NCBI GenBank assembly: GCA_038824665.1
Contig: JAWBBK010000004.1
Location: 77,779 to 116,565, forward strand
Reading direction: 5' to 3'
Origin: Acidilobaceae archaeon
GTDB taxonomy: Archaea; Thermoproteota; Thermoprotei_A; Sulfolobales; Acidilobaceae
DNA length: 38,787 nt
The position numbers were made by a program, and so were the translations under genes. The notes under the pieces are model-generated. The model saw only the letters and a list, made by a program, of their open reading frames with translations. It was not told where the DNA came from and did no database searches. Below, piece by piece: positions 10,954 through 37,988 of this stretch; the stretch's first letter is position 1, and each line of letters opens with the position of its first letter.

Positions 10954-11904
10954 TTGAAGATGAGATTAGTTTCTTACGAAGAGTACCTCGATTACATAAA
11001 AAAACACAAAGAAGTCGTTATTGGAGACACAATTATAAAAATAGGTGAGAGATGCCAAATTAAGAAATATCAACCTAAAGACTTTACTTTAGAGACGACA
11101 ACTGTTTGGAGTTTTCCCGACAGAGGCGATTGGGTTACACATAAAGGTGATTATAGGGGCAACTGGGCCCCTCAGGTAGTTCGTAACATAATACTTCGAT
11201 ATACTAAGCCTGGCGAGTGGGTTCTAGACCAAATGTGTGGTGGTGGGACCACTTTAGTAGAAGCTAAGCTCTTGGGGAGAAACGCTATAGGAGTAGATAT
11301 AAATTATGAAGCTTGCATCTTGACTTTAGATAGACTGAATTTCACCTACAGGCCTCCTGACTCAGAGTGGAGAGAGCCAGACATCAGGGTGTATCACGGA
11401 GACGCTAGAAACCTAGACTTGATCGAAGATGAATCTATAGACCTGATAGCGACTCATCCACCATATTTCAACATAGTCTCTTACTCCAAGAAGAAGATAG
11501 AAGGAGACCTTTCTCAAGCCCATAGCTTAGAAGAGTACTTAAGCGGAATGCGCAAAGTAGCTGAAGAAAGCTATAGAGTATTGAAGTCTGGTAGATATTG
11601 TGCTATTTTAATTGGTGATACGCGTTACAAAAAATACTATGTCCCTATAGCGTTTAGGGTTATGCAACAGTTTCTAGACGTAGGCTTCATACTCAAAGAG
11701 GACATAATTAAAGTTCAGTGGAACACTAAAGTTACAGAAAGAAAATGGAGAAAGCTAGTTAGGTCGCCTAGTGAGTGCTGGGTTGATGAGGAACAGAAGA
11801 AGAAAGACTTCTATCTGATCGCTCACGAGCATCTCTTTGTGTTCTATAAGCCCAAAGAGAAAAAAGAGTTGAAAAAGTATAGACTAAGCGCGAAATGGTG
11901 GTAG
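10954..11904 (+). CDS. Orphan N4/N6 amino-methyltransferase (DNA methylase / TRM11-like SAM-dependent)
   Basis: SAM-binding motif I DQMCGGGTTLVEA precedes catalytic motif IV THPPY; also RVLKSGRY and HEHLFVF. ATG at 10960 is an alternative start. Confidence 0.85.
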   Translation: MKMRLVSYEEYLDYIKKHKEVVIGDTIIKIGERCQIKKYQPKDFTLETTTVWSFPDRGDWVTHKGDYRGNWAPQVVRNIILRYTKPGEWVLDQMCGGGTTLVEAKLLGRNAIGVDINYEACILTLDRLNFTYRPPDSEWREPDIRVYHGDARNLDLIEDESIDLIATHPPYFNIVSYSKKKIEGDLSQAHSLEEYLSGMRKVAEESYRVLKSGRYCAILIGDTRYKKYYVPIAFRVMQQFLDVGFILKEDIIKVQWNTKVTERKWRKLVRSPSECWVDEEQKKKDFYLIAHEHLFVFYKPKEKKELKKYRLSAKWW

Positions 11905-18499: not shown

Positions 18500-21445
18500 T
18501 TAGCTTCTTCTGAAGAACAGAGCTAACATGGCGAGTATGAGTAACATGTTTACAGCTGATAAGATCAACGCATACATAGCGTAGGACCTAGCGGCTTCCG
18601 CTACACTTCTCACATCTTGTACTTCGTTTCTGAGTTCGCCTCTGGTTTCAGATATAGTAGCAGACGTAGCTGTTCTGAGACCCTCTATGGCGGTATTTAG
18701 AGTTGAACCTAGTGTCGCTATGGATTCTGATAAGCTAGACCCAAGTCTCGCTATAGCGTCAGCTAGCTCTCTAGATATGGCTCCTATTCTTGTTTCGACG
18801 TCCATTAGAGACTCTCTAAGCGTCTCTAAGCTCTTAGCTAGCTCCTCATACTGTTCTACGAATTGTGCTGGCACAGCCTGAACTAACGTTGAGTACTCTG
18901 AAGGTAAAGCTACTACATCGGAGTACGTGATTAACGTTAACCTATAGCCCGCGAAGCCTACGAGTTTTGTAGTAACTTCTGCAGGAACCTTTATGGTCAC
19001 AAGCCCTTCTCTAGCTGTAACGGCTCCTGTCGCTAGAACCTCACCTGTCGTTAAGTCAGAGATCAAATACTTCACAGTTATGGTTCCAGGTCCTGTTATC
19101 CTGACTGCGATCTCTGAATCTCTACCGATAACTAAAAGTCTAGTCTCAACTCCAGTGACTCTAGCGGTAACAGCCTCACCAAAGACCCAGTCAGTAGGTC
19201 CGAAGGGATATGTGGGGTCTCTGAAAGCCGTTAGAGTCAGCCTCTGTAGCTCAACGTTGTACTCGGTGAGCATGAAGGGTCCATTGGAGATCCATAGATT
19301 ACGATATTCCTCAAACCAAGAGCGAGCTGCCGCCACTCTAGCTCTCCACTCAGTCTCAGTCATGAGTTTTCTACCAGGTATTGTCACGTAGCTCTCGTAG
19401 CTAGCAAACGGGATCTCTTCTAGTAGAGCAGTCAGTCTTTCAGCGTGGTCTTTAAGAGCTAACGAGAGCCACGGTATCCTCTCTCTATCGGCTCTAGGTC
19501 TATCTAGAGCGAATTCTTTAGCGACGAATGCCGCATAATCTTGCACAGCGTAAAGCTCAAACGGTAACATGACTCCCAGCGCTGCCCAGTCAGCGATATA
19601 GAGAGGCTCAAAGTGCCAATAGTTCAGGTAAACCTCAAGCCTTGTTTCACCAATTATTCTCAAAGCCACTAATACGTCGTAAACATCCTTATAATATGCT
19701 CTGACTGTTGGCTCTATCTCAGCCTTCTCGTCATCGTATATGGCATCTAAGAATACACCGAGACCTCCGATTATGTCAGCCCACGTTATCGTCTGCCCGT
19801 TGTGCCACTTAGCTCCTAAAAACTTAGAGTAATCGAAAACTACTTTACTCGTGGCTGTTGTTCTACCAAGGTCTTTGGCTGAAACCCAAGTGTTCTTCAC
19901 GGCATCAAACCATATTGCATCGTCCGGAACTTGTAGTTTACCTTCAGGTCCTGCTGTATCTATGCTCACTATGCTCACTCTAAACGGCATTGGCATTCCG
20001 GTAAACGGATGTCTCCATGTAGAGAAGTCGTATGTACATCTAGCTGGGTCTACGCTGTAGACGTCTCTGAAACCTCTATAGGGGTTCCAAATCGTTGTGG
20101 CTGTGTGTACCCATAAGTGACCTACTTTGAGCTCTTCTCTACCGGGTATATGAGCTCCTCTGCAATTGAACGGGCTTCTAAGACCGGCTCCCAGGTCTAG
20201 AGTGAGCCCTCGGACCTCATCCCTGTAAGCCGTTATGTCAAGTCTAGCGAAGCCCCATATTCTTATGCTCTCTCTTACCGCTAGGTCTAGTCCTTTTCTG
20301 ATAGAGTCAACCCACTCTTCTTTGCTTTTTACCTTCATTAAAACAGCCATTCTGGCGTAGTCTGAAGCGTTCTTACCATCTATGGTTAGCTCATGCTTGT
20401 AGTTCCAGTAGCCGGGCTCACACCAACCGGGCAGATAGCAATAGAAGTCTCCTCCGAACTGAGCGAGCGGACCAGCATCATAACGATCCATAACTCCTTT
20501 GCCCCAGCCTTCAGTATAGTAGCTCCACCGAAGTTCCTTGGGGTCTGTATAGTACACTGTGCTTATGGCTGGCCCGAAGGGTAATTCGAGCCTGCTCACC
20601 TTGAAGCCGAGCTTGATCAGCTCAAGAGCAAATGCTCTGCCTATGTCAAGTCTCTCGTCTTCAACTCTTATAAGAGCCTTGATCTCAACGGGTACATCCG
20701 CGTAATGCCATACCCCACCCACGAGGGTAGCTCCTATGTCGGTCATGATCTCCGTTATTACTTTCTTAGCGTAGTCAGGGTTGTAGCCGAACCTGTATCT
20801 AGCGGCCACATCGGCTACTTCAGCATAAGTTGGATCGTCAGGACCGTAGGGCATGTACTTTATTAGCGCAAATCCACGATATACCTCTCTAACTATCCTA
20901 TCTCTATCGAGAGCGTAGTTTAGTGCGAACCTGACCTCTCTGATGCAGAATGGGTTGAGAGTAATGCTTGGATGGCGCCACTCTTCAACCACTCCTGAAG
21001 GTAAAGTAGTCAGGACTCCACAAAGTTCGACTCTAGTTCTGTTAACAGCTTCGTCGTACCTTACATATCTTATTAGTGTGGGCTTCACACCGAGAGTTAG
21101 AGCAACTGTCTCTTCCGTGTGACTGCCCGCGAGACTGACTATTTGAACTGGAGCAGGATTGAGCACTATGTCTATTAAACCTGTAGGAGCGAACGCTAGT
21201 TTGACCCCTGGAATCTTAGCTATTTCTGCTGCCGCTACGCCTCTTAAACCAAAGATGTACATATCTATTTCTCGAGCTTCTAAAGCGCTGGCTACTCTAT
21301 CATGAGGTACTCTAGTGATTACAATCCTATCGGAAGCCGGACCTTTAACTGTTTGGGCTACGGCAGGGATTGGCGCTATAGATATCAAGAGGACCAACAA
21401 CAGGATAAGTGATATCGATGTTATTCTATTACTCACAGGGAACAC
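18500..21445 (-). CDS. oppA: Large ABC transporter substrate-binding protein (family 5, OppA-like) with signal peptide and C-terminal membrane anchor
   Basis: N-terminal signal peptide, NPFCIREVRFALNYALDR, WHNGQTITWAD, ISNGPFML, C-terminal helical stalk and transmembrane segment ending RRS; lies upstream of oppBCF. Confidence 0.9.
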   Translation of the reverse strand: MFPVSNRITSISLILLLVLLISIAPIPAVAQTVKGPASDRIVITRVPHDRVASALEAREIDMYIFGLRGVAAAEIAKIPGVKLAFAPTGLIDIVLNPAPVQIVSLAGSHTEETVALTLGVKPTLIRYVRYDEAVNRTRVELCGVLTTLPSGVVEEWRHPSITLNPFCIREVRFALNYALDRDRIVREVYRGFALIKYMPYGPDDPTYAEVADVAARYRFGYNPDYAKKVITEIMTDIGATLVGGVWHYADVPVEIKALIRVEDERLDIGRAFALELIKLGFKVSRLELPFGPAISTVYYTDPKELRWSYYTEGWGKGVMDRYDAGPLAQFGGDFYCYLPGWCEPGYWNYKHELTIDGKNASDYARMAVLMKVKSKEEWVDSIRKGLDLAVRESIRIWGFARLDITAYRDEVRGLTLDLGAGLRSPFNCRGAHIPGREELKVGHLWVHTATTIWNPYRGFRDVYSVDPARCTYDFSTWRHPFTGMPMPFRVSIVSIDTAGPEGKLQVPDDAIWFDAVKNTWVSAKDLGRTTATSKVVFDYSKFLGAKWHNGQTITWADIIGGLGVFLDAIYDDEKAEIEPTVRAYYKDVYDVLVALRIIGETRLEVYLNYWHFEPLYIADWAALGVMLPFELYAVQDYAAFVAKEFALDRPRADRERIPWLSLALKDHAERLTALLEEIPFASYESYVTIPGRKLMTETEWRARVAAARSWFEEYRNLWISNGPFMLTEYNVELQRLTLTAFRDPTYPFGPTDWVFGEAVTARVTGVETRLLVIGRDSEIAVRITGPGTITVKYLISDLTTGEVLATGAVTAREGLVTIKVPAEVTTKLVGFAGYRLTLITYSDVVALPSEYSTLVQAVPAQFVEQYEELAKSLETLRESLMDVETRIGAISRELADAIARLGSSLSESIATLGSTLNTAIEGLRTATSATISETRGELRNEVQDVRSVAEAARSYAMYALILSAVNMLLILAMLALFFRRS

Positions 21446-21492
21446 CTCTGACTCTTTAGTTTAACTCTTTGAATAGTTTTAAAGTTTTAACA

Positions 21493-22278
21493 TTAACCTA
21501 TCGTTAATAGGGAACTAATAGCTTCTCCTCGCAGACTGAGAAACGCTATCCCCACAATAGCAAGAGTCAACACAGCTAAGATGAGAGCTTTTATGCGCTC
21601 GTCTTCAGCTCTTACTACTAGCTCGTAAGAGAAAGCCTTAAGGTCTGAGAATTCGTATCTACACAAGCCAGAAGTGCAATCCCTGAATAAAACCACTCCT
21701 TTATCTTCTCCAGACAGTACATCAAGTTTGAAGCTCCTGTTTCTCCCGCCCTCAACCAAAAGTTCCAGCTTCGTGTAAGCAAGTCTATACTCAGCTACAG
21801 CTACTCCTTTCTCCGGCAACAAAGAATAGGTGTAGAGAAGCCTTCCCTTATCGACCGTTAAGACTTGAGAAACGAGCGCTATTCCGCGATCGGGTAATAG
21901 GATGAAGTTGATAGGCCTAGCTCCTCTAGGTAGCTCGACTCTCGTTCCGCATTCAGCTATGAGGCTTTTAATCTCGCCTTCAGAGCTCTCATAAACGACC
22001 TCGAACCTCTCTATATCGATATCTGAAATGAGTACTCTACATTCAACAGCATAGCTCTCTACAACGGTGATCTTGAGTTCTTCCCGATCAAACAGCCTGA
22101 TCACTGTAGTCCCGTTCTTGAACTCCGCGTCTCTGACTCTTACCTCTTTCCAGTGAAGCTCCAAGGCTAGAGCTGAGAGAGAGACCAGAGTTAGAGTAAT
22201 GAATATAGTCAGTAGCATGAGCTTCTTTTTTCTGCTCCTCAAGCCTCTGCCTCTCCGCTTCTCAACTTCCGCTCTCAC
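21493..22278 (-). CDS. Hypothetical exported membrane protein with N-terminal and C-terminal hydrophobic segments
   Basis: Basic N-terminus followed by LMLLTIFITLTLVSLSALAL, beta-rich middle region, C-terminal LILAVLTLAIVGIAFL; overlaps the deacetylase gene. Confidence 0.7.
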   Translation of the reverse strand: MRAEVEKRRGRGLRSRKKKLMLLTIFITLTLVSLSALALELHWKEVRVRDAEFKNGTTVIRLFDREELKITVVESYAVECRVLISDIDIERFEVVYESSEGEIKSLIAECGTRVELPRGARPINFILLPDRGIALVSQVLTVDKGRLLYTYSLLPEKGVAVAEYRLAYTKLELLVEGGRNRSFKLDVLSGEDKGVVLFRDCTSGLCRYEFSDLKAFSYELVVRAEDERIKALILAVLTLAIVGIAFLSLRGEAISSLLTIG

Positions 22279-22990
22279 CGAACTTAGTCGAAGCCAGCTC
22301 GCTGAGAGTAACGATCTCGTAACCTAGAGTCCTGAGGTACTTAAGAGTCTGGGCTACGTTGTTAGCTACTCTTCTGCCTACACCAACTGTCAGGTCAGGT
22401 CTTTTCAGACTTCTAACCTCTACTAACTCCCAGGGGTGTAGATCGAGAACTATTAGAGAGCCCGGAAGCGGAAGGATAAGCTTTAACAAGAAAAAAGGAA
22501 GCCTTAAGACGCTACTAGGATGAGTTGTAGGAACCCTGACAATCCCTTCTTCTATCTTCACCTCCTTGTAGAAAGGAGGCTTGTAGAGAGTTATGCTCGA
22601 GTCCACTTCTATTCCCTCTTCTTTGAGAACCTTTAAGAGAGCTACAGGCAACTTAAAGTTAGGAGCTCTGAATGAAACCACGTTCCCGAAGTCTTTAAGA
22701 ACTCTAAGGCTCATCCTCACGTTTTCTGTGGCTTCTGAGTAGCTGAGCTTGTCAAGTCTTCTATGGTCCCAACCGTGACTGGCTAACTCGTGACCTTCCT
22801 CAACTATTTTGGAGACCATCTTCGGATATTTGACAGCCACTAGCCCTAAGGTGAAAAACGTAGCTTTGACTTCAAGGGTTTTTAAGATGTCTAGGAGGAG
22901 AGGAAGTCCTTCCTCCACTCCTCTCCAGCTGTTAAGGTAAGGAGGAGCGTCCATCTCTACATCGACGGTGAGCGTCGCGATACGTTTCAT
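22262..22990 (-). CDS. Polysaccharide deacetylase (NodB/CE4 family)
   Basis: LTVDVE, KATFF, GHELASHGWDH, SFRAP, DSS, LHPWE. Confidence 0.92.
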   Translation of the reverse strand: MKRIATLTVDVEMDAPPYLNSWRGVEEGLPLLLDILKTLEVKATFFTLGLVAVKYPKMVSKIVEEGHELASHGWDHRRLDKLSYSEATENVRMSLRVLKDFGNVVSFRAPNFKLPVALLKVLKEEGIEVDSSITLYKPPFYKEVKIEEGIVRVPTTHPSSVLRLPFFLLKLILPLPGSLIVLDLHPWELVEVRSLKRPDLTVGVGRRVANNVAQTLKYLRTLGYEIVTLSELASTKFGESGS

Positions 22991-24129
22991 TTCACTTCAG
23001 CCAATACTTTCTCCGCAAATCTGTACACAGATAAATATCTTGGCAACTGGTGCTCGCAGTCAAAATAGGTAGCGCGCTGAAGCGCACCGACAGCTAGCTT
23101 CTTCCTCAAGCTCTCATCGTTTATCAGAACCATAGTGTACTTGACGAACTCTTGTAGAGAGCTGGCCAGTAACCCGCTCTCACCGTGGCTGACAACCTCA
23201 GGAAGACCCCCAACCCTCATAGCTACTACTGGTACACCTGAAGCCATGGCCTCTAGAGCTGAAAGACCGAAAGCTTCAGTTCTGCTTGGTAGAACGAAGA
23301 CCTGGCTCCTCTTCAAAACCTTTCTTACCTTAGATCTTTCCAGAGGACCTAAGAGCACTACATTCTGAAGACCTTTCTTTTTGATTCTCTTTTCCATAGC
23401 TTTCTGAAGCTCTCCTGCGCCAACCACGTATAGTCTTGCCTTAGGGACTTCTCTTGCCATCTCCTCAGCCAGATAGAGAAGAGCAAGAGGGTTCTTGCGG
23501 TGCGTAAGTCTGAGAACCGAAACCACCACGGGGTCTCCCTCTAAAGAGGAATCTTCTTCAGCTTTTGCCCACTCACTGCATACTAGACAGTTGTACGTTA
23601 CGGTCAGCCACGGAGGCTTCAGCCTCCTATAAAGTTCTTCAGCTAGGCTTCTGCTAACCGCAGTTAGAACCCCTGTGTTCTTTACTAAGAACCTGAGTCC
23701 TAGAACGATATAACTAGGGGTGTCTTTATCTAAAAAGGAGTGTGCGGTAAGGACTGAAGGTCTTCCCAGTCGCTTCCAGCTTGAGTAAGCTCCTACTAGA
23801 GCTAGTGTTGAATAGAGGCTATGTTCATGAACTACATCAGGGTCTACAGCTTTCAAAATGCCACTCATCATAGCTATAGCTCGAGGATTCAAGGTGATTC
23901 CTCTGTAATCCAGATAAGAGTGTGACAATCTTATCACACTGACCCCATTCTCTTTGAATATGGGAAAGCAGGATGGGCTGATGTTTTCTGCTCTCGAGTT
24001 TTGTTTAGCTTTAGTGATTACTATCACTTCATGTTGTTTTTGAGTTAGGACTTTAATGTAATCCTCAAGGAAGCTCTCAATACCTCCGATCCTAGGCTTG
24101 AAGGAGTCCGTGACTATGGCTATCCTCAT
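22987..24129 (-). CDS. GT4 glycosyltransferase, PIG-A-like
   Basis: [60 protein letters not shown]. Start set to ATG 24129, just after the upstream stop. Confidence 0.9.
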
Positions 24130-24130
24130 C

Positions 24131-25003
24131 TTAATCAGCCCTCGAAGTGGTAACGACCTTTTTGAGAATCGTAAACCCTCCTTCTTTAAACACAAATAGT
24201 GCACCTAAAAGCGACGGTATGATTGAAGCTGTAGCTCTTTCAGCCAAAACGAGAGCTAGGACATCGTCTGAGTTGTAACCAGCGACGTTGAGGAAAAGTA
24301 TATACGTACCTTCGAAGACTCCTATGTTTCCTGGAGTCAAGGAGATCAATCTCGAAGCTACACCCAAGAGAGTTAGAGAAGCCGCTATGGACATATCTAT
24401 AGAGACTCCCACGAACTTAGCTAAAAAGAAGAGCCTCACGCTATCTACAATCCACAAGGCAGCTGAGAGAGCGCAGAGAGTTAGGACGAGCTTTGGATTT
24501 AACAGCACTTCATAGGCTTTCTGCAATGTATCGTAGACGTAGTCACAGGCTCTTCTGACCACACCTACCACATATAGTGAGACCGCTAGATGCGTCTGAA
24601 ACGCTTTTACGAAAAGAAGCGTGTAAACCAGTGCAACTGGGAGTTCCGAAACCCTCTCTACAGCTACTCCTGTAGCGAGCTTAGCAGTCTCTATGCCACT
24701 TCTATAAGATGTCCAGGCAATCCGAGCTAACTCACCGCTAACGCTATATATGTTTATCAGATTGTTAACCAAGATCCCAACGAAGATACCTTCGAGCACA
24801 TACGCTAAGCTAGCGGGCCTAATCTCTATGCGAGAAGCAATAGCCCACCTTAACCCCCATAAAAACACTGAAAAAAAGTATAACGAGATCACTATCAACG
24901 CATAGCGAGTTTCAAGTCTGCTGATTGACATCTCAACAGCGTTATGTACGCTCTGTACCAGCTCTAAATCCAGCACCGCGGCTACCCTCATTAGAATTCT
25001 CAA
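24131..25003 (-). CDS. UPF0104 / lysylphosphatidylglycerol synthase transmembrane-domain (flippase-like) protein
   Basis: LRW, N...SGELAR, VAVER, TPGNIGVFE and LAER motifs with several transmembrane segments; BRE-TATA-like GAAAACTTTAAG about 25 nt upstream. Confidence 0.87.
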   Translation of the reverse strand: MRILMRVAAVLDLELVQSVHNAVEMSISRLETRYALIVISLYFFSVFLWGLRWAIASRIEIRPASLAYVLEGIFVGILVNNLINIYSVSGELARIAWTSYRSGIETAKLATGVAVERVSELPVALVYTLLFVKAFQTHLAVSLYVVGVVRRACDYVYDTLQKAYEVLLNPKLVLTLCALSAALWIVDSVRLFFLAKFVGVSIDMSIAASLTLLGVASRLISLTPGNIGVFEGTYILFLNVAGYNSDDVLALVLAERATASIIPSLLGALFVFKEGGFTILKKVVTTSRAD

Positions 25004-25061
25004 TAATAGTTGAATCTGTTCTTAAAGTTTTCTCAGTCACCACACACTTTACTTCATGAAA

Positions 25062-25734: not shown

Positions 25735-25810
25735 AACTTTTTTATCCCGTATTTTTAAATCTCGATTTTGAATCTTCGCCATATATTATTGGAGAGAGGT
25801 GGTCTGGTCT

Positions 25811-26704
25811 ATGCGAGGGCTTGTACGAACTCTCTTCTATATCTTAGAGTCCACCAAACCCAAACAGACAGCTCTTATGCTTCTAACTATGTTGGGAGCT
25901 TATGCAGCTGGTTATGTTATTTCTGGTTCTGAAGACTTTTCTCTAGCCTTCCTTCTAGCTCTTCTAGCCATGGGCTACTTAGCTGTAGGAGGTACCACGT
26001 TGCTCAATATGTACTTCGACGTAGATATAGACAGCATAATGATGAGAACCATGAATAGACCTTTGCCCTCGAGGAAGCTAGACAAGAATATAGCTCTCAT
26101 CTGCGGAGTTCTCATGGTTTTGTCATCATTAGTGATAGCATGGAACATAAACATCTACGTTCTAGCTACGATAGTGGTGGGCTTCGTTTTCGACATATTA
26201 GGATACACAATATTGTTGAAGAGACGCTCTCCCTTCAGCATCTTTGCTGGAGCCGTAGCTGGCTCGATGCCAGCCTTAGGAGGCTGGGCTGCAGCTACGG
26301 GATCTTTGAACGTCCCTGCCTTTCTGCTCGCCTCTTTGGTGTTCCTTTGGCAACCGCTTCACGTATGGTTTCTCTCTTACTTCTACAGCGAAGACTATAT
26401 GAGAGCTGGAATCCCATCTCTCCCCTTGATCGTGAAGCCTACAGCTTTCGGGAGCGTAGTCTTGACGTTCCTGGCTTTGTTCGTCTTAGCTGTTGCGATG
26501 TTTGTACTTGTCACAGGCTACGGGGTCGTAGCTTTGTTTGTGAGCTTCTTTGGGTCTTTAAGAGTCTCACAGATGATACTGAAGTTCATCGAAAATTCAG
26601 AGAGAACTCTAGCTTGGAAGATCTTCAAGCTTGCAACTCCTCTGCTGGCCTTGACTTTCATTCTGATACCTTTAGAGGCTGCAGTCCGGTTTTGGCTTTT
26701 TTGA
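25811..26704 (+). CDS. ctaB: Protoheme IX prenyltransferase (heme O synthase, UbiA family)
   Basis: TKP, NMYFDVDIDSIMMRTMNRPLPS, YTILLKRRSP, GSMPALGGWAA, FLWQPLH, EDYMRAGIP; GAGGTG precedes ATG 25811. Confidence 0.95.
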   Translation: MRGLVRTLFYILESTKPKQTALMLLTMLGAYAAGYVISGSEDFSLAFLLALLAMGYLAVGGTTLLNMYFDVDIDSIMMRTMNRPLPSRKLDKNIALICGVLMVLSSLVIAWNINIYVLATIVVGFVFDILGYTILLKRRSPFSIFAGAVAGSMPALGGWAAATGSLNVPAFLLASLVFLWQPLHVWFLSYFYSEDYMRAGIPSLPLIVKPTAFGSVVLTFLALFVLAVAMFVLVTGYGVVALFVSFFGSLRVSQMILKFIENSERTLAWKIFKLATPLLALTFILIPLEAAVRFWLF

Positions 26705-29792: not shown

Positions 29793-30884
29793 TTGGGAGA
29801 GGCTTTGGAGAAAAAACACGTTAGTGTGGCCAAGCTCTGGAAGCCTTTGGTAGATAAAAAAGGATGGGTTGTGTGTGATCTCTGTCACAGAAGATGCATT
29901 ATAGCGCCAAACAACTATGGAGTCTGCGGGGTGAGAAGAAACCTTGAAGGCGTTCTGTATACACTTGTCTACGGACTTCTCACAGCAGTCAACTTAGACC
30001 CTATAGAAAAGAAGCCTTTGCTTCACTTCCACCCAGCTAGCGCTGTCCTCAGTATAGGCACTGTAGGTTGTAACTTCTTTTGCAAGTTTTGTCAGAATTG
30101 GGAGATAAGTCAAAGCAGGCTTGAGAAAGGGCTTTTTGGCTCTATCTTCAGTCCTGAGGACATAGTGGAGCTTGCAGTAAAACATGGAGCTGACGGACTG
30201 TCTTACACATACAACGAGCCGACAGTTTTCTTTGAGTTCCTCGAGGACACAGCAAAGCTAGCAAGAAAGAAAGGACTTTTCAATACGATCGTGACCAACG
30301 GTTACATGACGCCTGAAGCCGTAGACGAATTGAACGGACTTATAGATGCCGCTACGGTAGACTTTAAAGGTGGAGGTAACCCTGAGTTCTACCTAAACTT
30401 CATGAGAGTCCGAGACCCTAAAGTCATATTTGAAACCCTAAGAGCTATGAAAGAAAAGAAGTGGTGGATCGAGATCACCAATCTAGTGGTGCCTAAGTAT
30501 GGAGACAAAGAAGAAGATTTGAGAATTTTAGCTAGATGGATAGCTGAAAACTTAGGAGACGAAACTCCTTTCCATCTGCTTAGGTTTTACCCACAATACC
30601 GTCTCACAGATCTGCCGCCTACACCTAAACATACTTTAGAAAAGCTCGCTGAGATAGCCAAAAACGAGTCTCTAAAACATGTTTACTTAGGTAACGTGCC
30701 AGGCCACCCTCTAGAAAACACCTACTGTCCCTCTTGTGGACTTAAAGTGATAAGCAGATATGGCTTCTTCGTAACCGAGTACAAGCTAAAGCCAGGCAAC
30801 ATCTGTCCAAACTGTGGCAAGAAGTTAAACATTGTAGGAGACTATAAAGGGAGATCTCTAGGGTTTCCTATTCCTCTTCTCTAG
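29793..30884 (+). CDS. amrS: AmmeMemoRadiSam system radical SAM enzyme
   Basis: CDLCHRRC...GVCGVR, DPIEKKPLLHF, GCNFFCKFCQNWEISQ, YTYNEP, C-terminal CxxC pairs. Confidence 0.93.
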   Translation: MGEALEKKHVSVAKLWKPLVDKKGWVVCDLCHRRCIIAPNNYGVCGVRRNLEGVLYTLVYGLLTAVNLDPIEKKPLLHFHPASAVLSIGTVGCNFFCKFCQNWEISQSRLEKGLFGSIFSPEDIVELAVKHGADGLSYTYNEPTVFFEFLEDTAKLARKKGLFNTIVTNGYMTPEAVDELNGLIDAATVDFKGGGNPEFYLNFMRVRDPKVIFETLRAMKEKKWWIEITNLVVPKYGDKEEDLRILARWIAENLGDETPFHLLRFYPQYRLTDLPPTPKHTLEKLAEIAKNESLKHVYLGNVPGHPLENTYCPSCGLKVISRYGFFVTEYKLKPGNICPNCGKKLNIVGDYKGRSLGFPIPLL

Positions 30885-32083
30885 CTTTGAGCTAGAGCGT
30901 TCTCTATGTCTGCTTCCGAGACTCCCCATTTGGTTTTGACCTTCTCTACATCTATATAGCAGAGGGGATCGTCTTCCCACATGTCTCCGCCATACGCTAA
31001 AGCCCTTCCTCTGCTCCCTCCTCCACAGACTAGCTTAAAGACACACTTAGAGCACTTAGCTCCTCTCAAATTCTCATGAATCTTTAGGAAAGGTTTCAGA
31101 GAAGAGTTTTCGGGGTTCAGCACTTCTCTAAGGCTTTGTTTCCTCAAGTCTCCTACATCAACCCAATCTAGGAACTGACATGGTTTGACCTTCCCGTCAG
31201 GATAGATGCTTATAGTCTTCCTCCCACAATCTCCTTGAGCTCCTATAGCTGAAAGGTGAGCTAAGAACTCCTCTTTAGTCCTAGACAGGAGGTCGGCTAC
31301 ATGAATCCCTACGAAGTTAGCTCTAACCACGAGAACCTCGGGGTCTCCTCCAGTTTCTCTAGACACGTCTATCAGGTTCTCAACAAAGACCTTAAGCTGT
31401 TCAGGGGTTGGCATAAGCTCTAGCTCTTTAAGAGCTCTTCCTGTAGCGTCTAACACGTAGTAGGCTATTCTTTTGACTTCTAGCTTTCGGGAAAGCCATA
31501 CTAGTTCTGTAGCCTCTTCAACATTATCTTTGGTTATAGTCATTCTGAAGCCTGTATTCAATCCCGCTTTAATCGAAGCTGAGACTCCAGCTAAAGCTCT
31601 CTCAAAAGCTCCTCTTGCTCCTCTAAACACGTCGTGCTTCTCTTTATCTACACTATCTAGAGAGATTCCTACATAACTGAACTCGAGTTTAGCTAGCTTC
31701 TCAGCTACGTTTTCTGTGATCAGAGTACCATTAGTACTTAGAGCTAGCCTAACCCCATAATCTCTCAAGACCTCAGCTATGTTCCAAAAGTCTTCTCTAA
31801 GTAGAGGCTCGCCACCGCTTAGAACAACCATAGGAAGTCCTAGTTCGCCTATCTCGCGAGCCACATTTAATGCCTCTTCTAAAGACAACTCGTTGGGATG
31901 TTTTTGAGAGAAAGCAGAGATGTAGCAGTGAACACAACTCAAATTGCATCTATACGTAAGGTTCCAGAAGACGATTGGTCTGTAGTAGCTTGTGAACTTA
32001 GAAGGTAATCCTCTACCGTATTTGCCTTTAATCGAAAAAGACACTGTACCTCTTCCTGTCGCCATTACGCTTAGCGGTATCAT
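30881..32083 (-). CDS. ahbC: Radical SAM/SPASM protein, AhbC-like (Fe-coproporphyrin III synthase)
   Basis: RPIVFWNLTYRCNLSCVHCY, LSGGEP, STNG, YVGISLD, SPASM Cys motif; ATGA overlap with the upstream gene; heme cluster context. Confidence 0.82.
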   Translation of the reverse strand: MIPLSVMATGRGTVSFSIKGKYGRGLPSKFTSYYRPIVFWNLTYRCNLSCVHCYISAFSQKHPNELSLEEALNVAREIGELGLPMVVLSGGEPLLREDFWNIAEVLRDYGVRLALSTNGTLITENVAEKLAKLEFSYVGISLDSVDKEKHDVFRGARGAFERALAGVSASIKAGLNTGFRMTITKDNVEEATELVWLSRKLEVKRIAYYVLDATGRALKELELMPTPEQLKVFVENLIDVSRETGGDPEVLVVRANFVGIHVADLLSRTKEEFLAHLSAIGAQGDCGRKTISIYPDGKVKPCQFLDWVDVGDLRKQSLREVLNPENSSLKPFLKIHENLRGAKCSKCVFKLVCGGGSRGRALAYGGDMWEDDPLCYIDVEKVKTKWGVSEADIENALAQS

Positions 32084-33261
32084 AGCTGTGGCACCTCTAC
32101 GTTTAGTCCGAGCTCCATATAGCTTCCAGGAATGTAAGGACATGCAGGATCTTCGCCTAACGGGTTACCGGTAGCGCTGTAAGCCCTAGCTCTACTACCT
32201 CCACATATCTGCCTAAACTCACACCTTCCGCATCTGCCCTGAAACTCTGCTCTTCTAAGCTTCTTGAAGAACTCAGACTCTAGGTAGACACGTTTTAGTC
32301 CTTCTCTCCTCACATTACCTCCAGCTACTGGAAGAAACCCGCTAGGACATACGTCTCCATTATTTGCTATAAAGACTACCCCTTTTCCATCTCTAGTCCC
32401 TGTAGTTTCCGCTTTGCTCTCAGCTCTCGTAGGTCCCGCTATCGACTTGAGCTCTGACAACAGACCTTTGTATAAACCTCCCAACTTAAAGAGCTTCACG
32501 TGGTCTAAGCCCTCTCTCTCCGCTACATGTCTCGCGAGAGCGATACGTCGGAACATAGGTCCCTCTACTGTTCTGAGAGTTAGACCGTAGAACGAAGCGT
32601 CGTAGAGAAAATGAGAGACTTCCTCCCACTCCCACGGCTCTAAATCTAAATAGGAAGCTCCTCTACCCACTTTTACGAAGTAGAAGAGTTCCCAAGCTTG
32701 AACTTCTAGCTTCTCTAAGAGCGAGACTATTTTAGGGAGTTCGAACAAAGTTGGCCTCATTATTGTGGTATTTACTTGAACTTTAACCCCGTAGTCTTTG
32801 AATAACTTGATAGCTTCGAGAGTCTTAGCCCAGGTTCCGGGAACCCCTCTTACTCCATCATGTACTTCAGATGATGCTCCATCGAGACTTATCGAAACCG
32901 CTGAGACTCCGGCTTCTGCTGTCTTCTTAATTGATGTCTCCGTTAAAAGAGGCGTTACGCTAGGAGCAAGAGCTACTCTTACACCCTTCTCTCTAGCGTA
33001 CACTACTAGATCCCAGAGGTCTGCTCTCATAAGAGGATCTCCACCTGTAAAGACCAAAATGGGATAAGGAGACCCAAAGGAAGCAACCTCGTCTACGAGC
33101 CTCAAGCCCTCTTCAGTGGTGAGTTCTCCGGGAAGAGGCTTCTCTATAGCCTCCGCTCGACAATGTTTACAAGCGAGAAGACAAGCCTTTGTGGTTTCCC
33201 AGAACACTAGCAGAGGCTTCTCATCGAAAGGCCAGCGGGTATAGCGTACCAACCTCCTCAC
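32080..33261 (-). CDS. ahbD: Radical SAM/SPASM protein, AhbD-like (heme b synthase)
   Basis: PLLVFWETTKACLLACKHCRAEA, TGGDP, VGRG, CGRCEFRQICGGSRARA...DPAC. Confidence 0.82.
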   Translation of the reverse strand: MRRLVRYTRWPFDEKPLLVFWETTKACLLACKHCRAEAIEKPLPGELTTEEGLRLVDEVASFGSPYPILVFTGGDPLMRADLWDLVVYAREKGVRVALAPSVTPLLTETSIKKTAEAGVSAVSISLDGASSEVHDGVRGVPGTWAKTLEAIKLFKDYGVKVQVNTTIMRPTLFELPKIVSLLEKLEVQAWELFYFVKVGRGASYLDLEPWEWEEVSHFLYDASFYGLTLRTVEGPMFRRIALARHVAEREGLDHVKLFKLGGLYKGLLSELKSIAGPTRAESKAETTGTRDGKGVVFIANNGDVCPSGFLPVAGGNVRREGLKRVYLESEFFKKLRRAEFQGRCGRCEFRQICGGSRARAYSATGNPLGEDPACPYIPGSYMELGLNVEVPQL

Positions 33262-33281
33262 ACGCCAAAACTCTGTTTTAT

Positions 33282-33323
33282 CCTAAACATTTTTAATTCT
33301 AGCCTAAACATTTTTAATTCTAG
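33282..33323 (+). repeat. 21-bp perfect tandem duplication in the divergent ahbD / ahbAB promoter region
   Basis: CCTAAACATTTTTAATTCTAG at 33282-33302 and 33303-33323. Confidence 0.92.
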
Positions 33324-33377
33324 CTTTAGTTGTACTGTAATATTAGCTCTAGACAAGCAGAAAATTTGGGAGCAGTT

Positions 33378-34343
33378 TTGAGGCTAAACCCTTTTGCTGA
33401 AAAGCTTCTCATGAAGCTTCAATATGAGTTTCCGTTGAGTCTCACTCCTTACCTAGACGTAGCTGAAGAGCTGAACGCCTCTGAGAAGATGGTTCTGACC
33501 GAGTTGAAGAGACTTGTCGAAGCGGGAATCGTCAAGAGAGTAGGCTTCTATTATAACTACAGGTCTAAGCGTCAAAGCGCTGCGTTAATAGGAGTCTCTT
33601 GTAAAGAGAGCTATCGGAGCGTCGGCGAGATAACGAAAAAAGACCCTCTTACTACTCACAGCTATCTTCGAGACCATCCTGAAGTCAACCTGTGGGTTGT
33701 AGCTAGAAGAGGGTCTAGAGAAGAGCTAATAAGCTACGCGGAAGAACTTGCCAAAGCGTGCAACTCTTCGAAGTACACTGTGTTGTTTAGTAAAAAGACC
33801 TTCAAGCTAAGCGTTAAGTTCGACCTAATAGAGGGAGTTTCAAGAAGTGGGCCCTATTCAAGTGTAGCTGAAAGTCCCCCCAAGCCTGAAGACCTTGGGA
33901 TAGACCCCAGGTTGCCAGAGATGGTGCGCTCTTTGCCCCTTGAGAACAGACCCTATAAAACCATAGCTGAAAGGCTAAACATGAGAGAGGACGAGGTCCT
34001 AGAATCTCTCTTAAAGTTATTGAAGAATGGGATTCTAGGAGACCCAGGAGTTGCTCTTGATGGGAAAAAGCTAGGGTTTTCTGAAAACGCTATGATAGTA
34101 GTTAGAGTAGATGGCTCTGAAGAGAAGATGTTGTGTCTAGCCTCTATACCTTACACTACTCACGTAGTTCTGAGAGAAGTGTACCCACCCGGTAGCTGGG
34201 ACTTCGACGGCTACGCTATGGTCCACGCTACGAGCAGAGACAAAATAAACAAGGTAATCAATGAGACCTCTTCTCTCTGCTCTCTAGCCCAGAAAGAGGT
34301 CTTGTTCAGCATAGAGGACCTGAAGCCTGAAGTGGTGAGATAA
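33378..34343 (+). CDS. ahbAB: Siroheme decarboxylase, fused AhbA-AhbB (Lrp/AsnC-like fold)
   Basis: Two modules: LQYEFPL..TPY...HSYLR...NLW, and LPLENRPY...THVVLR...YAMVHA. The ORF could start at 33330; TTG 33378 follows GGGAG. Confidence 0.85.
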   Translation: MRLNPFAEKLLMKLQYEFPLSLTPYLDVAEELNASEKMVLTELKRLVEAGIVKRVGFYYNYRSKRQSAALIGVSCKESYRSVGEITKKDPLTTHSYLRDHPEVNLWVVARRGSREELISYAEELAKACNSSKYTVLFSKKTFKLSVKFDLIEGVSRSGPYSSVAESPPKPEDLGIDPRLPEMVRSLPLENRPYKTIAERLNMREDEVLESLLKLLKNGILGDPGVALDGKKLGFSENAMIVVRVDGSEEKMLCLASIPYTTHVVLREVYPPGSWDFDGYAMVHATSRDKINKVINETSSLCSLAQKEVLFSIEDLKPEVVR

Positions 34344-35050
34344 TGACCTTCATCCCGCTTTACATAAACCTATCGGGCCTTCGAGTCCTAGTTGTAGGAG
34401 GAGGTTACATAGGAACTAGGAGAGCTGTTTTCTTTAAAGAAGCTGGAGCCAGAGTCACCGTGGCAGCCAAAGAGTTTAGAGAAGAGCTAAGAAGAGGAGA
34501 GTTCAGCTTAATAGAACTGAGCCTTCCAGAAGACATGGCTAAACTCGAAGAACTTGTGAAAACCCACGATTTGGTAGTGGTAGCGGTAAGCGATGAAGAG
34601 TTGGCACGAAAGGTCTCTGAAATGGCTATGAAAATGGGAAAGCTTGTCAACAATACTGTTGACTACAAACAGGGAAACGTGATAGTCCCGTTTAGAGCCG
34701 TAGTTAAAGGTATAGGAATAGCCGTCACTTCTTTCGGAGCTTCGGGAATGGCCGCTAGAGTAGCTTTGGAGAAAGCTGTAAAGGTCTTGTCTGAAGACCT
34801 GGAGGTTAGAACTATTCTTGAGTCTTTTGGGAGATTCAAAGAACAGTTGAGAAAAGCCGTGAGGGATCCCAAGCTGAGGATGAAAATATATCTGGCAATA
34901 GAAGAAGACGCTACCTACTGTGAGTACGTAAAGAGAGGAGATGTGATCAAAGCCTACGAGAGAGCCCTAGAGGTTGCCAGAAGCTTCAATGTAAACCTTG
35001 AGCCTGCTCACGATCGCTTCCTCCAAGAGGGGGAGCAAATGAGAGACTAA
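34343..35050 (+). CDS. sirC: Precorrin-2 dehydrogenase / sirohydrochlorin ferrochelatase (SirC/Met8-like)
   Basis: PLYINLSGLRVLVVGGG..G.RR, LVNNTVD, IAVTSFG; TAATG coupling to ahbAB. Confidence 0.9.
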   Translation: MTFIPLYINLSGLRVLVVGGGYIGTRRAVFFKEAGARVTVAAKEFREELRRGEFSLIELSLPEDMAKLEELVKTHDLVVVAVSDEELARKVSEMAMKMGKLVNNTVDYKQGNVIVPFRAVVKGIGIAVTSFGASGMAARVALEKAVKVLSEDLEVRTILESFGRFKEQLRKAVRDPKLRMKIYLAIEEDATYCEYVKRGDVIKAYERALEVARSFNVNLEPAHDRFLQEGEQMRD

Positions 35051-35545
35051 AAGCTTGTCCCCACACTCTTCCGAGGCTCTGAGAGACGTAATGCCCGGTA
35101 GAAGGCTCAGAACGGCTACACAGTCCTCTGAGCCAGAACATTTTTTGAAAAGATTTACGGGAACTCCTAACTTTTCTTGAAGTAGCCTAGCTACTTCCCG
35201 AAGAGTCTCAGATCTCTCTGCCTCTGGATGAACGAGCGATACTGAGCGACAGCCAGAGAGCTTTTCTGATAGAGGACCAACAGCATCTTTGAGAGAAGGA
35301 GGCTCGACGATCTTAGCTCCTCTAGAGCTGGCTTTAGTCACAACCTCTAAGTATCCGCTACCTCTAAGCAAAAATAGAGGGTATACTATGTCTCGATCTG
35401 AAATGAGACATGAAGACTCTCTGACCTCTTCTTGTGTACAGAGTTCTACCTCGACTCCCAGTTTAGAGTTCAGCATAGCCTTCAACCTCTCCGCTTCTGA
35501 AGCTGCGCTAGCGGTATATCCATGAACGACTACAACGACTCTCAA
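34967..35545 (-). CDS. Degenerate CbiX/SirB-like class II chelatase-fold protein
   Basis: N-terminal VVVVVHGY, YPLFLLRG and a second-half VLSLLPG echo the duplicated CbiX motifs; located inside the siroheme/heme cluster. The ORF extends to 35611. Confidence 0.55.
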   Translation of the reverse strand: MRVVVVVHGYTASAASEAERLKAMLNSKLGVEVELCTQEEVRESSCLISDRDIVYPLFLLRGSGYLEVVTKASSRGAKIVEPPSLKDAVGPLSEKLSGCRSVSLVHPEAERSETLREVARLLQEKLGVPVNLFKKCSGSEDCVAVLSLLPGITSLRASEECGDKLLVSHLLPLLEEAIVSRLKVYIEASGNL

Positions 35546-35770
35546 CGACAGTATCTCCACAAGCTTCTTCGCGCTCTGTAGATATATTTCGCTATTCACC
35601 TTTTGCTTCAACTGAAATGCTCGTCACTAAGTCTTTTTTCCTCTTTCCACAACACTGTCTGTCTCACGATGACCTAAAGGATTCAGCATAAAATAATTCT
35701 GAGTATTCTAATTATTTAAAAATAAAGATTTAACCCCGCTTTGTCGGTTACTCCTAGTGGGTAAGATTTT

Positions 35771-37003
35771 ATGGATTTTGTAAAAGCCTACGCTGTAACT
35801 CACCGAAAGTGTCCTATTGACAAGATCGGTCAGCTCGGAAACAGAAGAGACGAACTCTACACATATCTTAAAGGAGAAGCTCGCGGACTAGTGATATTAG
35901 CTACATGTAACAGGCTTGAAGTTTATGTGGATTCTCCCACGAACTCTTTTGAGAGCTTCTTGAAGAACGCGCTAGGAGACATGCCTTTCGAACTTTACGA
36001 AGGCCTCAACGCTATCAGACATCTCATTGAAGTAGCCTCAGGTCTCGACTCACAGATCCTAGGGGAACACGAGATAATGGGACAAGTGCGAGAAGCGTGG
36101 AGCTATGCCAAAAGGATCGGTGCTTCATCTAAGACCCTAGACTACGTATTCTCCAGAGCCCTACAGTCTGCTAAGCGGATAAGGAGAGAGACCAGAATAG
36201 GGTACGGTGTTGTGGGCTATCCTCAGGCCGGGATAGAGCTACTAGCCCTGAGACTAGGAGGTCTTAGCGGAAGGTCATTGATGATCGTTGGAGCTGGACA
36301 CGCTGGAGAAACAGCTCTAAAACATCTTTGCAAAAAGTACAAGCCTTCAAGAGTCATCATAGCTAACAGGACGCCTGAAAGAGCTACAGCTCTAACTTCT
36401 CTATGCTCTGAAGTAGAGGTCTTAGTCACAGGACTCGATAAGGTAAAAGAGTTCTCAACGAAGGTTGACGGCGTTTTCGTAGCTATATCTGGAGGGGTAA
36501 AGCTTCTCTCTGCAAGCGACGTAGAGAATTCTAAAGCGCTGATCGTAGACATCTCTACGCCTCCTGTTGTTGAGAAGGTTTACAACAAAGTCTTTTACAT
36601 GGAAGACGTGAAAGCTCTCTCCGACGAGAATTTGAAAATCAGATTAAGCGAAGTCCCTAAAGCGTATGCTATAATCGAGCAAGAACTAGAGAAAACCAGA
36701 AGGTTTCTAGAAAGAGTCCCCATAGAGCTGATGATCGCCGACTTAATGAAGAAAGCTAAAGAGCTATACATAACAGAAGCCAAAAGAGCTTCTAAGAACG
36801 GAAGAGAACTGGTCTCAGAAGAGTTTGTTGTAGTTCTTGACAGCTATATGAGGAAAGTTCTCCGACCTCTTCTTTTGTTCATGAGAACTAGGTCTACTGA
36901 TGGAAATTTAAACGTCATAAAAGATCTTTACGATCTATACGTAAATGAGCTAGAGAGGATGATAAAAGGTGAAAGTAGGAGAGTTTCCACGTATAAGACC
37001 TAG
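35771..37003 (+). CDS. hemA: Glutamyl-tRNA reductase
   Basis: LATCNRLEVY, HLIEVASGLDSQILGEHEIMGQV, IVGAG, IANRT, VDIS.P. Confidence 0.96.
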   Translation: MDFVKAYAVTHRKCPIDKIGQLGNRRDELYTYLKGEARGLVILATCNRLEVYVDSPTNSFESFLKNALGDMPFELYEGLNAIRHLIEVASGLDSQILGEHEIMGQVREAWSYAKRIGASSKTLDYVFSRALQSAKRIRRETRIGYGVVGYPQAGIELLALRLGGLSGRSLMIVGAGHAGETALKHLCKKYKPSRVIIANRTPERATALTSLCSEVEVLVTGLDKVKEFSTKVDGVFVAISGGVKLLSASDVENSKALIVDISTPPVVEKVYNKVFYMEDVKALSDENLKIRLSEVPKAYAIIEQELEKTRRFLERVPIELMIADLMKKAKELYITEAKRASKNGRELVSEEFVVVLDSYMRKVLRPLLLFMRTRSTDGNLNVIKDLYDLYVNELERMIKGESRRVSTYKT

Positions 37004-37988
37004 AAGGCTCAGACTCTCGAAAAACATTAGAGAAATCGTTGCTGAAACGAGACTTCATCCCTCTATGTTCATGCTTCCGGTCTTCCTAAATGAGAACGTA
37101 GAGAGGCCTGTAGAGACTCCTTCTCTCAAAGGTCACTACTACTACTCTCCTCAATCACCAGAGCTAGTGAAGCTGATCGGAGAGGCTCTAGACCTAGGAG
37201 TCAGGTCTTTCCTTTTGTTCGGTATACCTTCACACAAAGACTTCTATGGATCTCAAGCCTGGTCTAAAGAAGGCGTCGTCCAAAAGGCCGTTAGGTTTTT
37301 GAGAAAAGAGCTAGGATGGGAGCCTATCATCTTCTCTGACCTATGCCTCTGTGGCTATACAGACCACGGACACTGTGGAATACCGAAGCAGACAGCTAGA
37401 GGCACTGTTATAGACAACGACTCCACTCTGGAGTTCTACAGTAGGATCGCTGTAAGTCAAGCTGAAGCTGGAGTCGACTTTGTGGCTCCTTCAGGAATGA
37501 TGGATGGACAGGTCTCAGCGATCAGAAGAGCTCTAGACGAAGCTGGATTCAGCGACGTAGGCATAATGGCTTATTCAGCTAAATATGCTAGCGGATTTTA
37601 TGGTCCCTTCAGAACCGTGATGGATTCTGCTCCCAGATTCGGCGATAGAAGAAGCTATCAGATGGATCCTAGAAACGCCAGAGAGGCTCTTAAAGAAGCT
37701 ATAATGGATGTAATAGAAGGAGCCGATATAATCATGGTGAAGCCTGCTCTTGCTTATTTGGATGTGATAGCTCTGATCAAGAATAACCTTCCCCACGTTC
37801 CTTTAGCTGCCTACAACGTTAGCGGAGAGTACGCCATGGTCAAAGCAGCTGGAGCCGCTGGTGTAATAGATGAAAAGATAGTCATGATGGAAGTCCTAAC
37901 GGCTATCGCTAGAGCTGGAGCGGACATAATCATAACCTATCACGCTATAGAAGCCTCTAGAGTCATTAAGGAAGGGTTTTCGTTCTGA
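36969..37988 (+). CDS. hemB: Porphobilinogen synthase (Zn-binding type)
   Basis: RPRRLR, DLCLCGYTDHGHCG, APSGMMDGQV, YSAKYAS.FYGPFR, MVKPA, YNVSGEYAM. Confidence 0.97.
   Translation: MKVGEFPRIRPRRLRLSKNIREIVAETRLHPSMFMLPVFLNENVERPVETPSLKGHYYYSPQSPELVKLIGEALDLGVRSFLLFGIPSHKDFYGSQAWSKEGVVQKAVRFLRKELGWEPIIFSDLCLCGYTDHGHCGIPKQTARGTVIDNDSTLEFYSRIAVSQAEAGVDFVAPSGMMDGQVSAIRRALDEAGFSDVGIMAYSAKYASGFYGPFRTVMDSAPRFGDRRSYQMDPRNAREALKEAIMDVIEGADIIMVKPALAYLDVIALIKNNLPHVPLAAYNVSGEYAMVKAAGAAGVIDEKIVMMEVLTAIARAGADIIITYHAIEASRVIKEGFSF

Follow-up and report, generated by a model that had tools for sequence, protein, structure and literature searches.

A conserved flippase-glycosyltransferase-deacetylase operon in archaea as a candidate pathway for glucosaminyl-archaetidylinositol

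What is made by the tightly packed genes at positions 21493 to 25003 of a 38,787-nucleotide stretch of DNA from an Acidilobaceae archaeon (GenBank assembly GCA_038824665.1, contig JAWBBK010000004.1; hereafter the window)? A preliminary description, made from the sequence alone, had read them as a four-gene module akin to the initiation of glycosylphosphatidylinositol (GPI) synthesis, in which a PIG-A-like transferase, a deacetylase and a flippase would make and export glucosaminyl-archaetidylinositol, with the fourth protein as partner or client. We found that three of the four genes form a conserved unit and that the fourth does not belong to it. The likeliest product of the three-gene operon is the membrane lipid glucosaminyl-archaetidylinositol, a reading to which we give a probability of roughly 0.55. 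That the product would be an amino-sugar lipid of some kind is highly probable, because the same trio has been proven in the bacterial gpgSDF and hexSDF operons.

The cluster consists of four minus-strand open reading frames (ORFs), which encode in order a flippase, a family 4 glycosyltransferase (GT4), a deacetylase and a protein that we call orf4 (Table 1). Both the ORFs and their close spacing are as had been described. The flippase and GT4 genes are separated by a 1-bp gap at 24130, the GT4 and deacetylase genes share a 4-bp ATGA overlap, and the deacetylase and orf4 genes overlap by 17 bp, provided that the GTG at 22278 is the orf4 start; the ATG at 24991 is possibly the true start of the flippase. 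The TATA-like element reported ahead of the flippase was likewise found, as a 10-mer that resembles a transcription factor B recognition element (BRE) and TATA box.

Table 1. Coordinates, in the window, of the genes and promoter-like elements discussed
Feature	Positions	Strand	Basis and remarks
BRE/TATA-like 10-mer	25022..25031	-	Sequence; before flippase; probable (predicted) operon promoter
AglD2/YbhN/MprF-flippase-type membrane protein (F)	24131..25003	-	PF03706, TIGR00374
GT4 (GT-B) glycosyltransferase (S), 380 aa from ATG at 24129	22987..24129	-	PF00534/PF13439
CE4/NodB-fold de-N-acetylase (D), 242 aa	22262..22990	-	PF01522, 68.8 bits
orf4, beta-rich domain between N- and C-terminal hydrophobic helices	21493..22278	-	No family; outside the lipid module
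Second BRE/TATA-like 10-mer	21479..21488	-	Sequence; before peptide-binding protein gene; probable (predicted) promoter (context)
Oligopeptide-binding protein (solute-binding protein family 5)	18500..21445	-	PF00496 and orthologue search; first gene of ATP-binding cassette (ABC) transporter cluster (context)

A search of 61 related genomes (labelled G; the window's own genome is G000) yielded 23 GT4 loci (labelled L) that were fetched at E<=1e-30, and in 19 of these, drawn from four families, a deacetylase gene lies directly after the GT4 gene; the other four GT4s stand alone. BLAST placed the flippase upstream in 17 of the 19 loci, the match being weak in L008 and lost at a contig end in L012. 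Full-length deacetylase matches occurred in exactly 19 of the 61 genomes, the module genomes themselves; since the profiles were built from those 19 genomes, this co-occurrence is partly circular, and its informative part is the absence of full-length matches from the remaining 42. The complete flippase-GT4-deacetylase unit was also present in 21 of 68 named loci, some from genomes that overlap with the 61-genome set, with three of the 68 cut before the deacetylase and four Thermococcales loci without the flippase; carriers include Thermococcus, Pyrodictiaceae, Acidilobus and a Micrarchaeota genome. In the Thermococcales (the order of G342), 62 of 82 genomes encode a deacetylase scoring above 240 bits, and a module-type flippase of at least 200 bits accompanies it in 53 of those 62 and in none of the other 20. 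Thirteen Thermococcales regions chosen by their deacetylase matches all had the GT4-deacetylase pair, and 11 had the flippase. The module is unevenly distributed in the phylum to which the window belongs, where 7 of 301 genomes gave matches at E<=1e-30, one of them only partial. The neighbourhood is therefore kept for three genes and not for the fourth, which adjoins them only in the window and in the same-genus genome G001, so that the four genes do not form one conserved unit.

Two versions of the module occur in the Thermococcales, one at L128-L133, L142 and L143 and the other at L134-L137 and L141. One of them carries a GT4 from the stand-alone, P0387-type clade rather than from the main module clade, which suggests that the transferase was swapped inside the operon.

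The fourth gene, orf4, belongs with the adjacent cluster for a peptide ABC transporter and is a bystander here. It lies behind the deacetylase in only 2 of the 19 module genomes, and its homologue in the second, G001, begins 39 bp past the deacetylase stop, without overlap. A weak match in G020 (E 0.006) lies directly upstream of the orthologous peptide-binding protein gene and ~9 kb away from the module. A profile of three sequences, run against 4533 ORFs from all loci, then picked out homologues at the equivalent place in two more genomes: G007 (80.6 bits, E 3.7e-23), whose sequence did not contribute to the profile, and G013 (21.7 bits). Since G013 lacks a full-length deacetylase, the homologue occurs there in a genome without the module. 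We accordingly rejected orf4 as a module part. The preliminary description's proposal that the protein is a partner or client also conflicts with its C terminus: read by eye, 12 residues that include Arg and Glu follow the C-terminal helix of orf4, and in the G001 and G020 homologues, too, the last helix gives way to a charged tail, unlike a GPI signal. Family scans and the ESM Atlas gave no family match for orf4, and a search of 5.8 billion sequences returned its own cluster only. Its structure model (predicted local distance difference test score [pLDDT] 82.5, built from two sequences) gave nothing credible with Foldseek (TM ~0.1), and in a wide structure search its two helices alone were matched (Z<=8.4). 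Members of the orf4 family at L147 1477-2271, L194 77-835 and L202 585-1286 sit upstream of family-5 peptide-binding protein genes; the family combines two helices with a beta-rich domain, and the three members that were aligned share a cysteine pair.

That a NodB-type enzyme takes the place of PIG-L in this operon had been proposed, and the family match, the modeled fold and the active-site residues of the predicted deacetylase all point the same way. Across 19 aligned orthologues H72, H76, R108 and H185 are invariant and E12 is nearly so; we take these residues to have the catalytic and metal-binding roles of their counterparts in CE4 enzymes. The structure model (pLDDT 94) matches the CE4 deacetylases 3rxz and 3qbu, and there is a weak match to DUF2334 (21.4 bits). 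The PIG-L family (PF02585) was not found in G000, G001 or G037 and is present but unlinked in G020 and G031. The deacetylase shows one weak hydrophobic window, which is internal; since the protein lacks a signal peptide, it should act in the cytoplasm. The flippase scored 89.1 bits against PF03706 (cut-off 33.4) and 62.9 bits against TIGR00374 (cut-off 43.2). It has five hydrophobic windows and can be aligned with its orthologues, and a search of its profile against solved structures gave no match.

The GT4 is a predicted and probable UDP-N-acetylglucosamine (UDP-GlcNAc):inositol-lipid transferase. Its closest named relative, 71% identical, comes from an Acidilobaceae genome, and R207, K212, E285 and E293 are invariant among 18 aligned orthologues. 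All six motifs that had been likened to those of PIG-A are indeed in the translation, but they are not specific to PIG-A, since BshA and PimB' share them: the C-terminal motifs align to BshA and the N-terminal motif aligns to the mannosyltransferase PimB', and Lys212 is followed by Asn-Pro instead of the Gly given for PIG-A in the preliminary description. Seven of the 18 orthologues match the PIGA model PF08288 weakly (best E 2.3e-6). A hydrophobic-window scan detected no membrane helix in the window GT4, and hence no PIG-A-style C-terminal helix; archaeal PIG-A-like proteins likewise have none (PMC2446393; here and below, papers are cited for those passages that were available). The best curated model is BshA (TIGR03999; 122.2 bits, below the cut-off of 273.7), which is also the best solved-structure match, and the scores against MshA (TIGR03449; 80 bits, cut-off 462.5) and GpgS (NF053787; 47.3 bits, cut-off 480) are lower still, so that the protein is not a GpgS member. 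The ESM Atlas returned generic bacterial GT4 clusters and nothing else. Judged from sequence, the likeness of the window GT4 to PIG-A appears real but weak. Our GT4 trees contain no eukaryotic PIG-A, none having been identified among the structure, representative or homologue matches. In the first tree the BshA-labelled outgroup is not confined to one side of a branch; the second is a quick mixture-model version with 45 rows.

Bacillithiol and mycothiol synthesis were considered as functions and rejected, because the GT4 missed the BshA and MshA cut-offs and a flippase is present.

In the pathway that we propose, a retaining GT4 in the cytoplasm would move an N-acetylhexosamine, likeliest GlcNAc donated by UDP-GlcNAc, to the archaetidylinositol head group. 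The CE4 metal enzyme, also cytoplasmic, would then strip the acetyl group, as its fold and residues suggest, leaving a free amine to offset the phosphate charge, and the AglD2/MprF-type flippase would carry the product to the outer face. Glucosaminyl-archaetidylinositol would be a zwitterionic ether phospholipid, a bulk membrane lipid and end product rather than a protein anchor, and it would be made by the same chemistry as the opening pair of reactions in GPI synthesis. The same sequence of GlcNAc transfer, deacetylation and flipping stood at the core of the preliminary description. It gains support because the gene order is kept, because inositol-lipid genes adjoin orthologues and because gpgSDF and hexSDF offer a parallel; the proposed role of the fourth protein as partner or client is not supported.

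The acceptor is likely to be an inositol lipid, as the neighbours of related genes suggest. Three genomes from a single genus (L008/L093, L014 and L015) have a gene for an archaetidylinositol-phosphate (AIP) synthase after the deacetylase gene, on the same strand. These synthases score 181.7 to 184.9 bits against NF040950 (cut-off 180), and at L093 an inositol-phosphate synthase gene lies ~2 kb upstream. Six metagenome loci, apparently from the same lineage, repeat the AIP synthase linkage, and the window GT4 groups with the synthase-linked GT4s in a starred clade (99) in both trees. The window's own genome encodes an inositol-phosphate synthase and an AIP-synthase-like protein, both unlinked to the module. 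In bacteria, five deltaproteobacterial loci (L088, L090, L091, L092 and L108) carry genes for inositol-phosphate synthase, phosphatidylinositol-phosphate synthase and then a related GT4, with the same deacetylase family within the fetched DNA of three of the five. At L181 an inositol-phosphate synthase gene is divergent from a GT4-deacetylase pair. L139 (=L087) and L188 have GT4, flippase and deacetylase genes beside PAP2_3 and serine-palmitoyltransferase-like genes, neighbours that suggest an inositol-ceramide product; clusters of this type are possibly a glucosaminyl inositol-phosphoceramide pathway.

Two further observations concern these bacterial loci. In the deltaproteobacterial operon (L088, L090/L138, L091, L092 and L108), two 2-hydroxyacyl-CoA-dehydratase-type genes accompany the GT4 and deacetylase genes, and a B12 radical S-adenosylmethionine (SAM) gene lies upstream in some cases; from its gene content this operon appears to be an undescribed inositol-lipid pathway. 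L085, which belongs to the set of serine-palmitoyltransferase-like/PAP2_3 clusters, has genes for a GT4, a flippase and a HAD phosphatase; L087 and L085 are from Gemmatimonadota.

Published lipid analyses bear on the amino-sugar product. Hexosamine-hexose-phospho-archaeol (PHexHexNH2-archaeol) makes up ~41% of the polar lipids of Thermococcus kodakarensis and was undetected in Pyrococcus furiosus and P. yayanosii (PMC7356043, Table 1), the latter having PHexHex and not the amino form (PMC7356043). T. barophilus has PHexHexNH2-archaeol and trace amounts of its N-acetylated counterpart (PMC9294538), which, by analogy, would be the intermediate expected under the proposed pathway. Genome G358, which encodes a protein 100% identical to one from P. 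yayanosii, gave no match to the deacetylase or to the module-type flippase. This absence fits the missing amino lipid of P. yayanosii.

Several observations weigh against glucosaminyl-archaetidylinositol as the product, in addition to the circularity already mentioned. The window GT4 itself has no match to PF08288 at E<=0.01, and a paralogue in the same genome that is unlinked to the module scores higher on the PIG-A model. The window genome's AIP-synthase-like protein reaches 164.9 bits, under the cut-off of 180, and its gene is unlinked. No inositol gene was found in the flanks of 16 of the 19 related module loci, for which mostly 1.5 kb was fetched; because the three linked loci all belong to one genus, the linkage among these 19 amounts to one event. 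A sister relation to the bacterial inositol-linked GT4s appears in one tree with an unstarred value of 90, and the mixture-model tree does not resolve it. The lipid evidence comes from Thermococcales papers only; the correlation between absence of the module and absence of the amino lipid draws on the single species P. yayanosii, and the clusters of 20 Thermococcales GT4s name many Thermococcus species, not T. kodakarensis or T. barophilus. Glucosaminyl bonds withstand mild acid, and this resistance may be why no hexosamine was released from a T. barophilus lipid fraction. That PHexHexNH2 fraction, F5, gave glucose only on hydrolysis, and its authors tentatively assign the inner sugar as glucose, not inositol (PMC9294538). 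One review also holds that aminolipids are absent from thermophiles (PMC4244643), a statement that the Thermococcales lipid data contradict. We nevertheless favor the inositol lipid over the other explanations.

GT4 acceptors change easily. The same three steps, in the same role, might serve archaetidyl-glucose (giving the PGlcHexNH2 suggested for T. barophilus), archaetidylglycerol or a glycolipid instead. The glucose obtained alone from fraction F5 (PMC9294538) speaks for such an acceptor, as do the 16 loci without an inositol gene in their fetched flanks and the proven three-gene analogues, which act on phosphatidylglycerol (GpgS) or a glycolipid (HexS). What makes a non-inositol acceptor unlikely, while still deserving notice, is the recurrence of inositol-lipid genes nearby, seen in one archaeal genus as well as several bacterial lineages, together with the PIG-A N-terminal model matched by 7 of 18 orthologues, the alignment of the GT4 N-terminal motif with that of PimB', an enzyme with a phosphatidylinositol acceptor, and the distance from GpgS (47.3 versus 480 bits).

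Two other functions are less probable by far. Tailoring of N-glycans, the main alternative in the preliminary description, would have the GT4 add N-acetylhexosamine to a dolichol-phosphate-linked glycan that the CE4 enzyme deacetylates and the AglD2-type protein flips for S-layer glycosylation. The Thermococcus module often lies two to three genes from what we presume, from its N-terminal sequence, to be an S-layer-like gene. The flippase family takes its name from the C-terminal domain of archaeal AglD (COG0392 name; PMC12713373). For 92 flanking genes at 26 archaeal loci, however, the best Pfam match (E<=1e-5) was never to a glycosyltransferase, AglB/STT3 or sugar-nucleotide family, which weakens this reading, and the unit travels as a closed cassette that bacterial carriers pair with inositol and sphingolipid genes; we regard N-glycan tailoring as improbable. 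Least credible is a genuine GPI-type pathway for anchoring proteins, in which orf4 would be the client or partner. A Methanosarcina barkeri lipid with a GPI-core head group, reported in 1992, and GPI-linked proteins reported in Sulfolobus (both as cited in PMC2446393) would suit it, as would the hydrophobic helices at both ends of orf4. The distribution of orf4 homologues, which are upstream of peptide-binding protein genes and in G013 occur without the module, and the charged tails of two of them speak against it. Five genomes gave no match to PF01650 (peptidase C13, Gpi8/PIG-K), PF04114 (Gaa1) or PF05007 (PIG-M), although the Gaa1 and PIG-M controls were also silent and G000 is 83% complete.

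If glucosaminyl-archaetidylinositol or a close relative is the product, the operon may supply candidate genes for the hexosamine-hexose-phospho-archaeols, which are major Thermococcus lipids, and the order in which the module is widespread has a member amenable to genetic work. The available passages of the Thermococcus lipid papers (PMC7356043, PMC9294538) name no genes for these lipids. A literature search, which left most subscription journals outside its reach, found no paper that ties the archaeal operon to a lipid; the passages available from two reviews of archaeal lipid synthesis (PMC9385802, PMC4244643) contain no mention of "glucosamin," and those from PMC10881803 and PMC7226565 contain nothing specific to the operon. 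A bolder proposal, which we put forward tentatively, is that prokaryotes reach the GPI core by way of this module. Its GT4, related to PIG-A, would make a GlcNAc-alpha-1,6-inositol lipid, a CE4 enzyme unrelated to PIG-L would deacetylate it and an AglD2-type flippase would export it, the substrates being archaeol lipids in hyperthermophilic archaea, phosphatidylinositol in Syntrophales-type bacteria and inositol-ceramide in Gemmatimonadota. On this view the abundant, unassigned PHexHexNH2 of Thermococcus would be an ether lipid bearing the GPI core, and a pathway for modifying membrane charge would have given rise to eukaryotic GPI synthesis.

Other GT4s of this group are not tied to the deacetylase. 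The paralogue mentioned above (G000:C1:134211-135239; L052 6128-7348, plus strand) stands alone beside a thermosome gene and scores 28.7 bits against PF08288 in a genome search, which reaches the cut-off, and 25.6 bits as a whole protein. Stand-alone paralogues occur also in G001 (L053) and at L020, L022 and L023, and in the GT4 tree they form a separate clade without deacetylase or flippase; they are candidates for the synthesis of neutral hexosyl-inositol lipids. Archaeal GT4s positive for PF08288 fall mostly in a separate clade, outside that of the module, and are stand-alone or UbiA-linked. A UbiA-family prenyltransferase gene lies directly upstream of such GT4s at L031, L033, L035, L037, L039 and L047-L049, and the same arrangement recurs in L094-L124 (18 of the 68 named loci). 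The PHexHex head groups of Thermococcales bear an unexplained +C5H8 (PMC7356043, PMC9294538), and a GT4-UbiA pair could produce these lipids. The split of archaeal PIG-A-like GT4s into deacetylase-linked and UbiA-linked clades may account for different Thermococcales lipids.

Elsewhere in the window, the 10-mer found before the flippase recurs in identical form ahead of the peptide-binding protein gene, which therefore probably has its own promoter. The window contains the 10-mer twice and shuffled sequences 0.18 times on average, a comparison that is no fair test because the pattern was picked after both sites were known. A scan for sigma-70 promoters and terminators, not built for archaeal promoters, gave chance-level counts, and three metatranscriptomes from the same study contributed 0 reads, which has no bearing on expression. 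Heme/siroheme-type genes occupy 25799-26704 and 29793-37988 and encode a UbiA-family protein, radical SAM proteins, siroheme decarboxylase, glutamyl-tRNA reductase and 5-aminolevulinate dehydratase. A DNA methylase gene (PF01555) at 10954-11904 is flanked by ABC transporter genes.

Among known systems, the BshA/BshB and MshA/MshB pairs resemble the archaeal unit in coupling GlcNAc transfer by a GT4 to de-N-acetylation. The bacillithiol and mycothiol routes that they serve use soluble acceptors and PIG-L-type deacetylases and have no flippase. Eukaryotic GPI initiation, carried out by the PIG-A complex and PIG-L, has in common with the archaeal unit a probable GlcNAc transfer by a GT4-fold enzyme, cytoplasmic de-N-acetylation and flipping, together with the weak PF08288 matches of orthologues. 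It differs in that the window GT4 lacks both the PF08288 match and a membrane helix, a CE4 enzyme replaces PIG-L, and there is no anchored client. Oswal et al. (2008) described soluble archaeal GT4s that resemble PIG-A, showed no activity for them and placed them closer to bacterial GT4s; the terms operon, deacetylase and PIG-L are missing from that paper (PMC2446393).

The closest parallels are bacterial. The gpgSDF operon of Pseudomonas aeruginosa makes GlcNAc-phosphatidylglycerol and then glucosaminyl-phosphatidylglycerol, flipping being only proposed (PMC12713373). Like the archaeal unit, it combines a GT4, a cytoplasmic CE4-type deacetylase and an AglD2/YbhN flippase (COG0392), and it turns an anionic lipid zwitterionic, as we propose for the archaeal unit (PMC12713373). 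The two differ in gene order (F-S-D in archaea, S-D-F in gpgSDF), in deacetylase family (PF01522 as against COG3233 for GpgD) and in acceptor, an ether lipid with probable inositol in place of phosphatidylglycerol. The hexSDF operon of Clostridioides difficile makes aminohexosyl-hexosyl-diradylglycerol, again with flipping only proposed, and likewise places a transferase, a polysaccharide deacetylase and an MprF-like flippase domain in one operon; unlike the archaeal GT4, HexS is annotated as a monogalactosyldiacylglycerol-synthase type and acts on a glycolipid, and hexSDF is under two-component system control (PMC10128005). The archaeal genes have the features of this kind: a transferase, a CE4-type deacetylase and an AglD2/MprF-type flippase domain in one conserved operon, with the transferase and deacetylase predicted to be cytoplasmic and, by alignment and model, to keep their active-site residues intact. 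The archaeal operon is thus a variant of the gpgSDF/hexSDF kind, whose three-gene logic had already been described in bacteria and was missed in the preliminary description. If glucosaminyl-archaetidylinositol is the product, the charge-modifying strategy of gpgSDF and hexSDF extends to archaea, where the first two steps of GPI synthesis would run with a different deacetylase.

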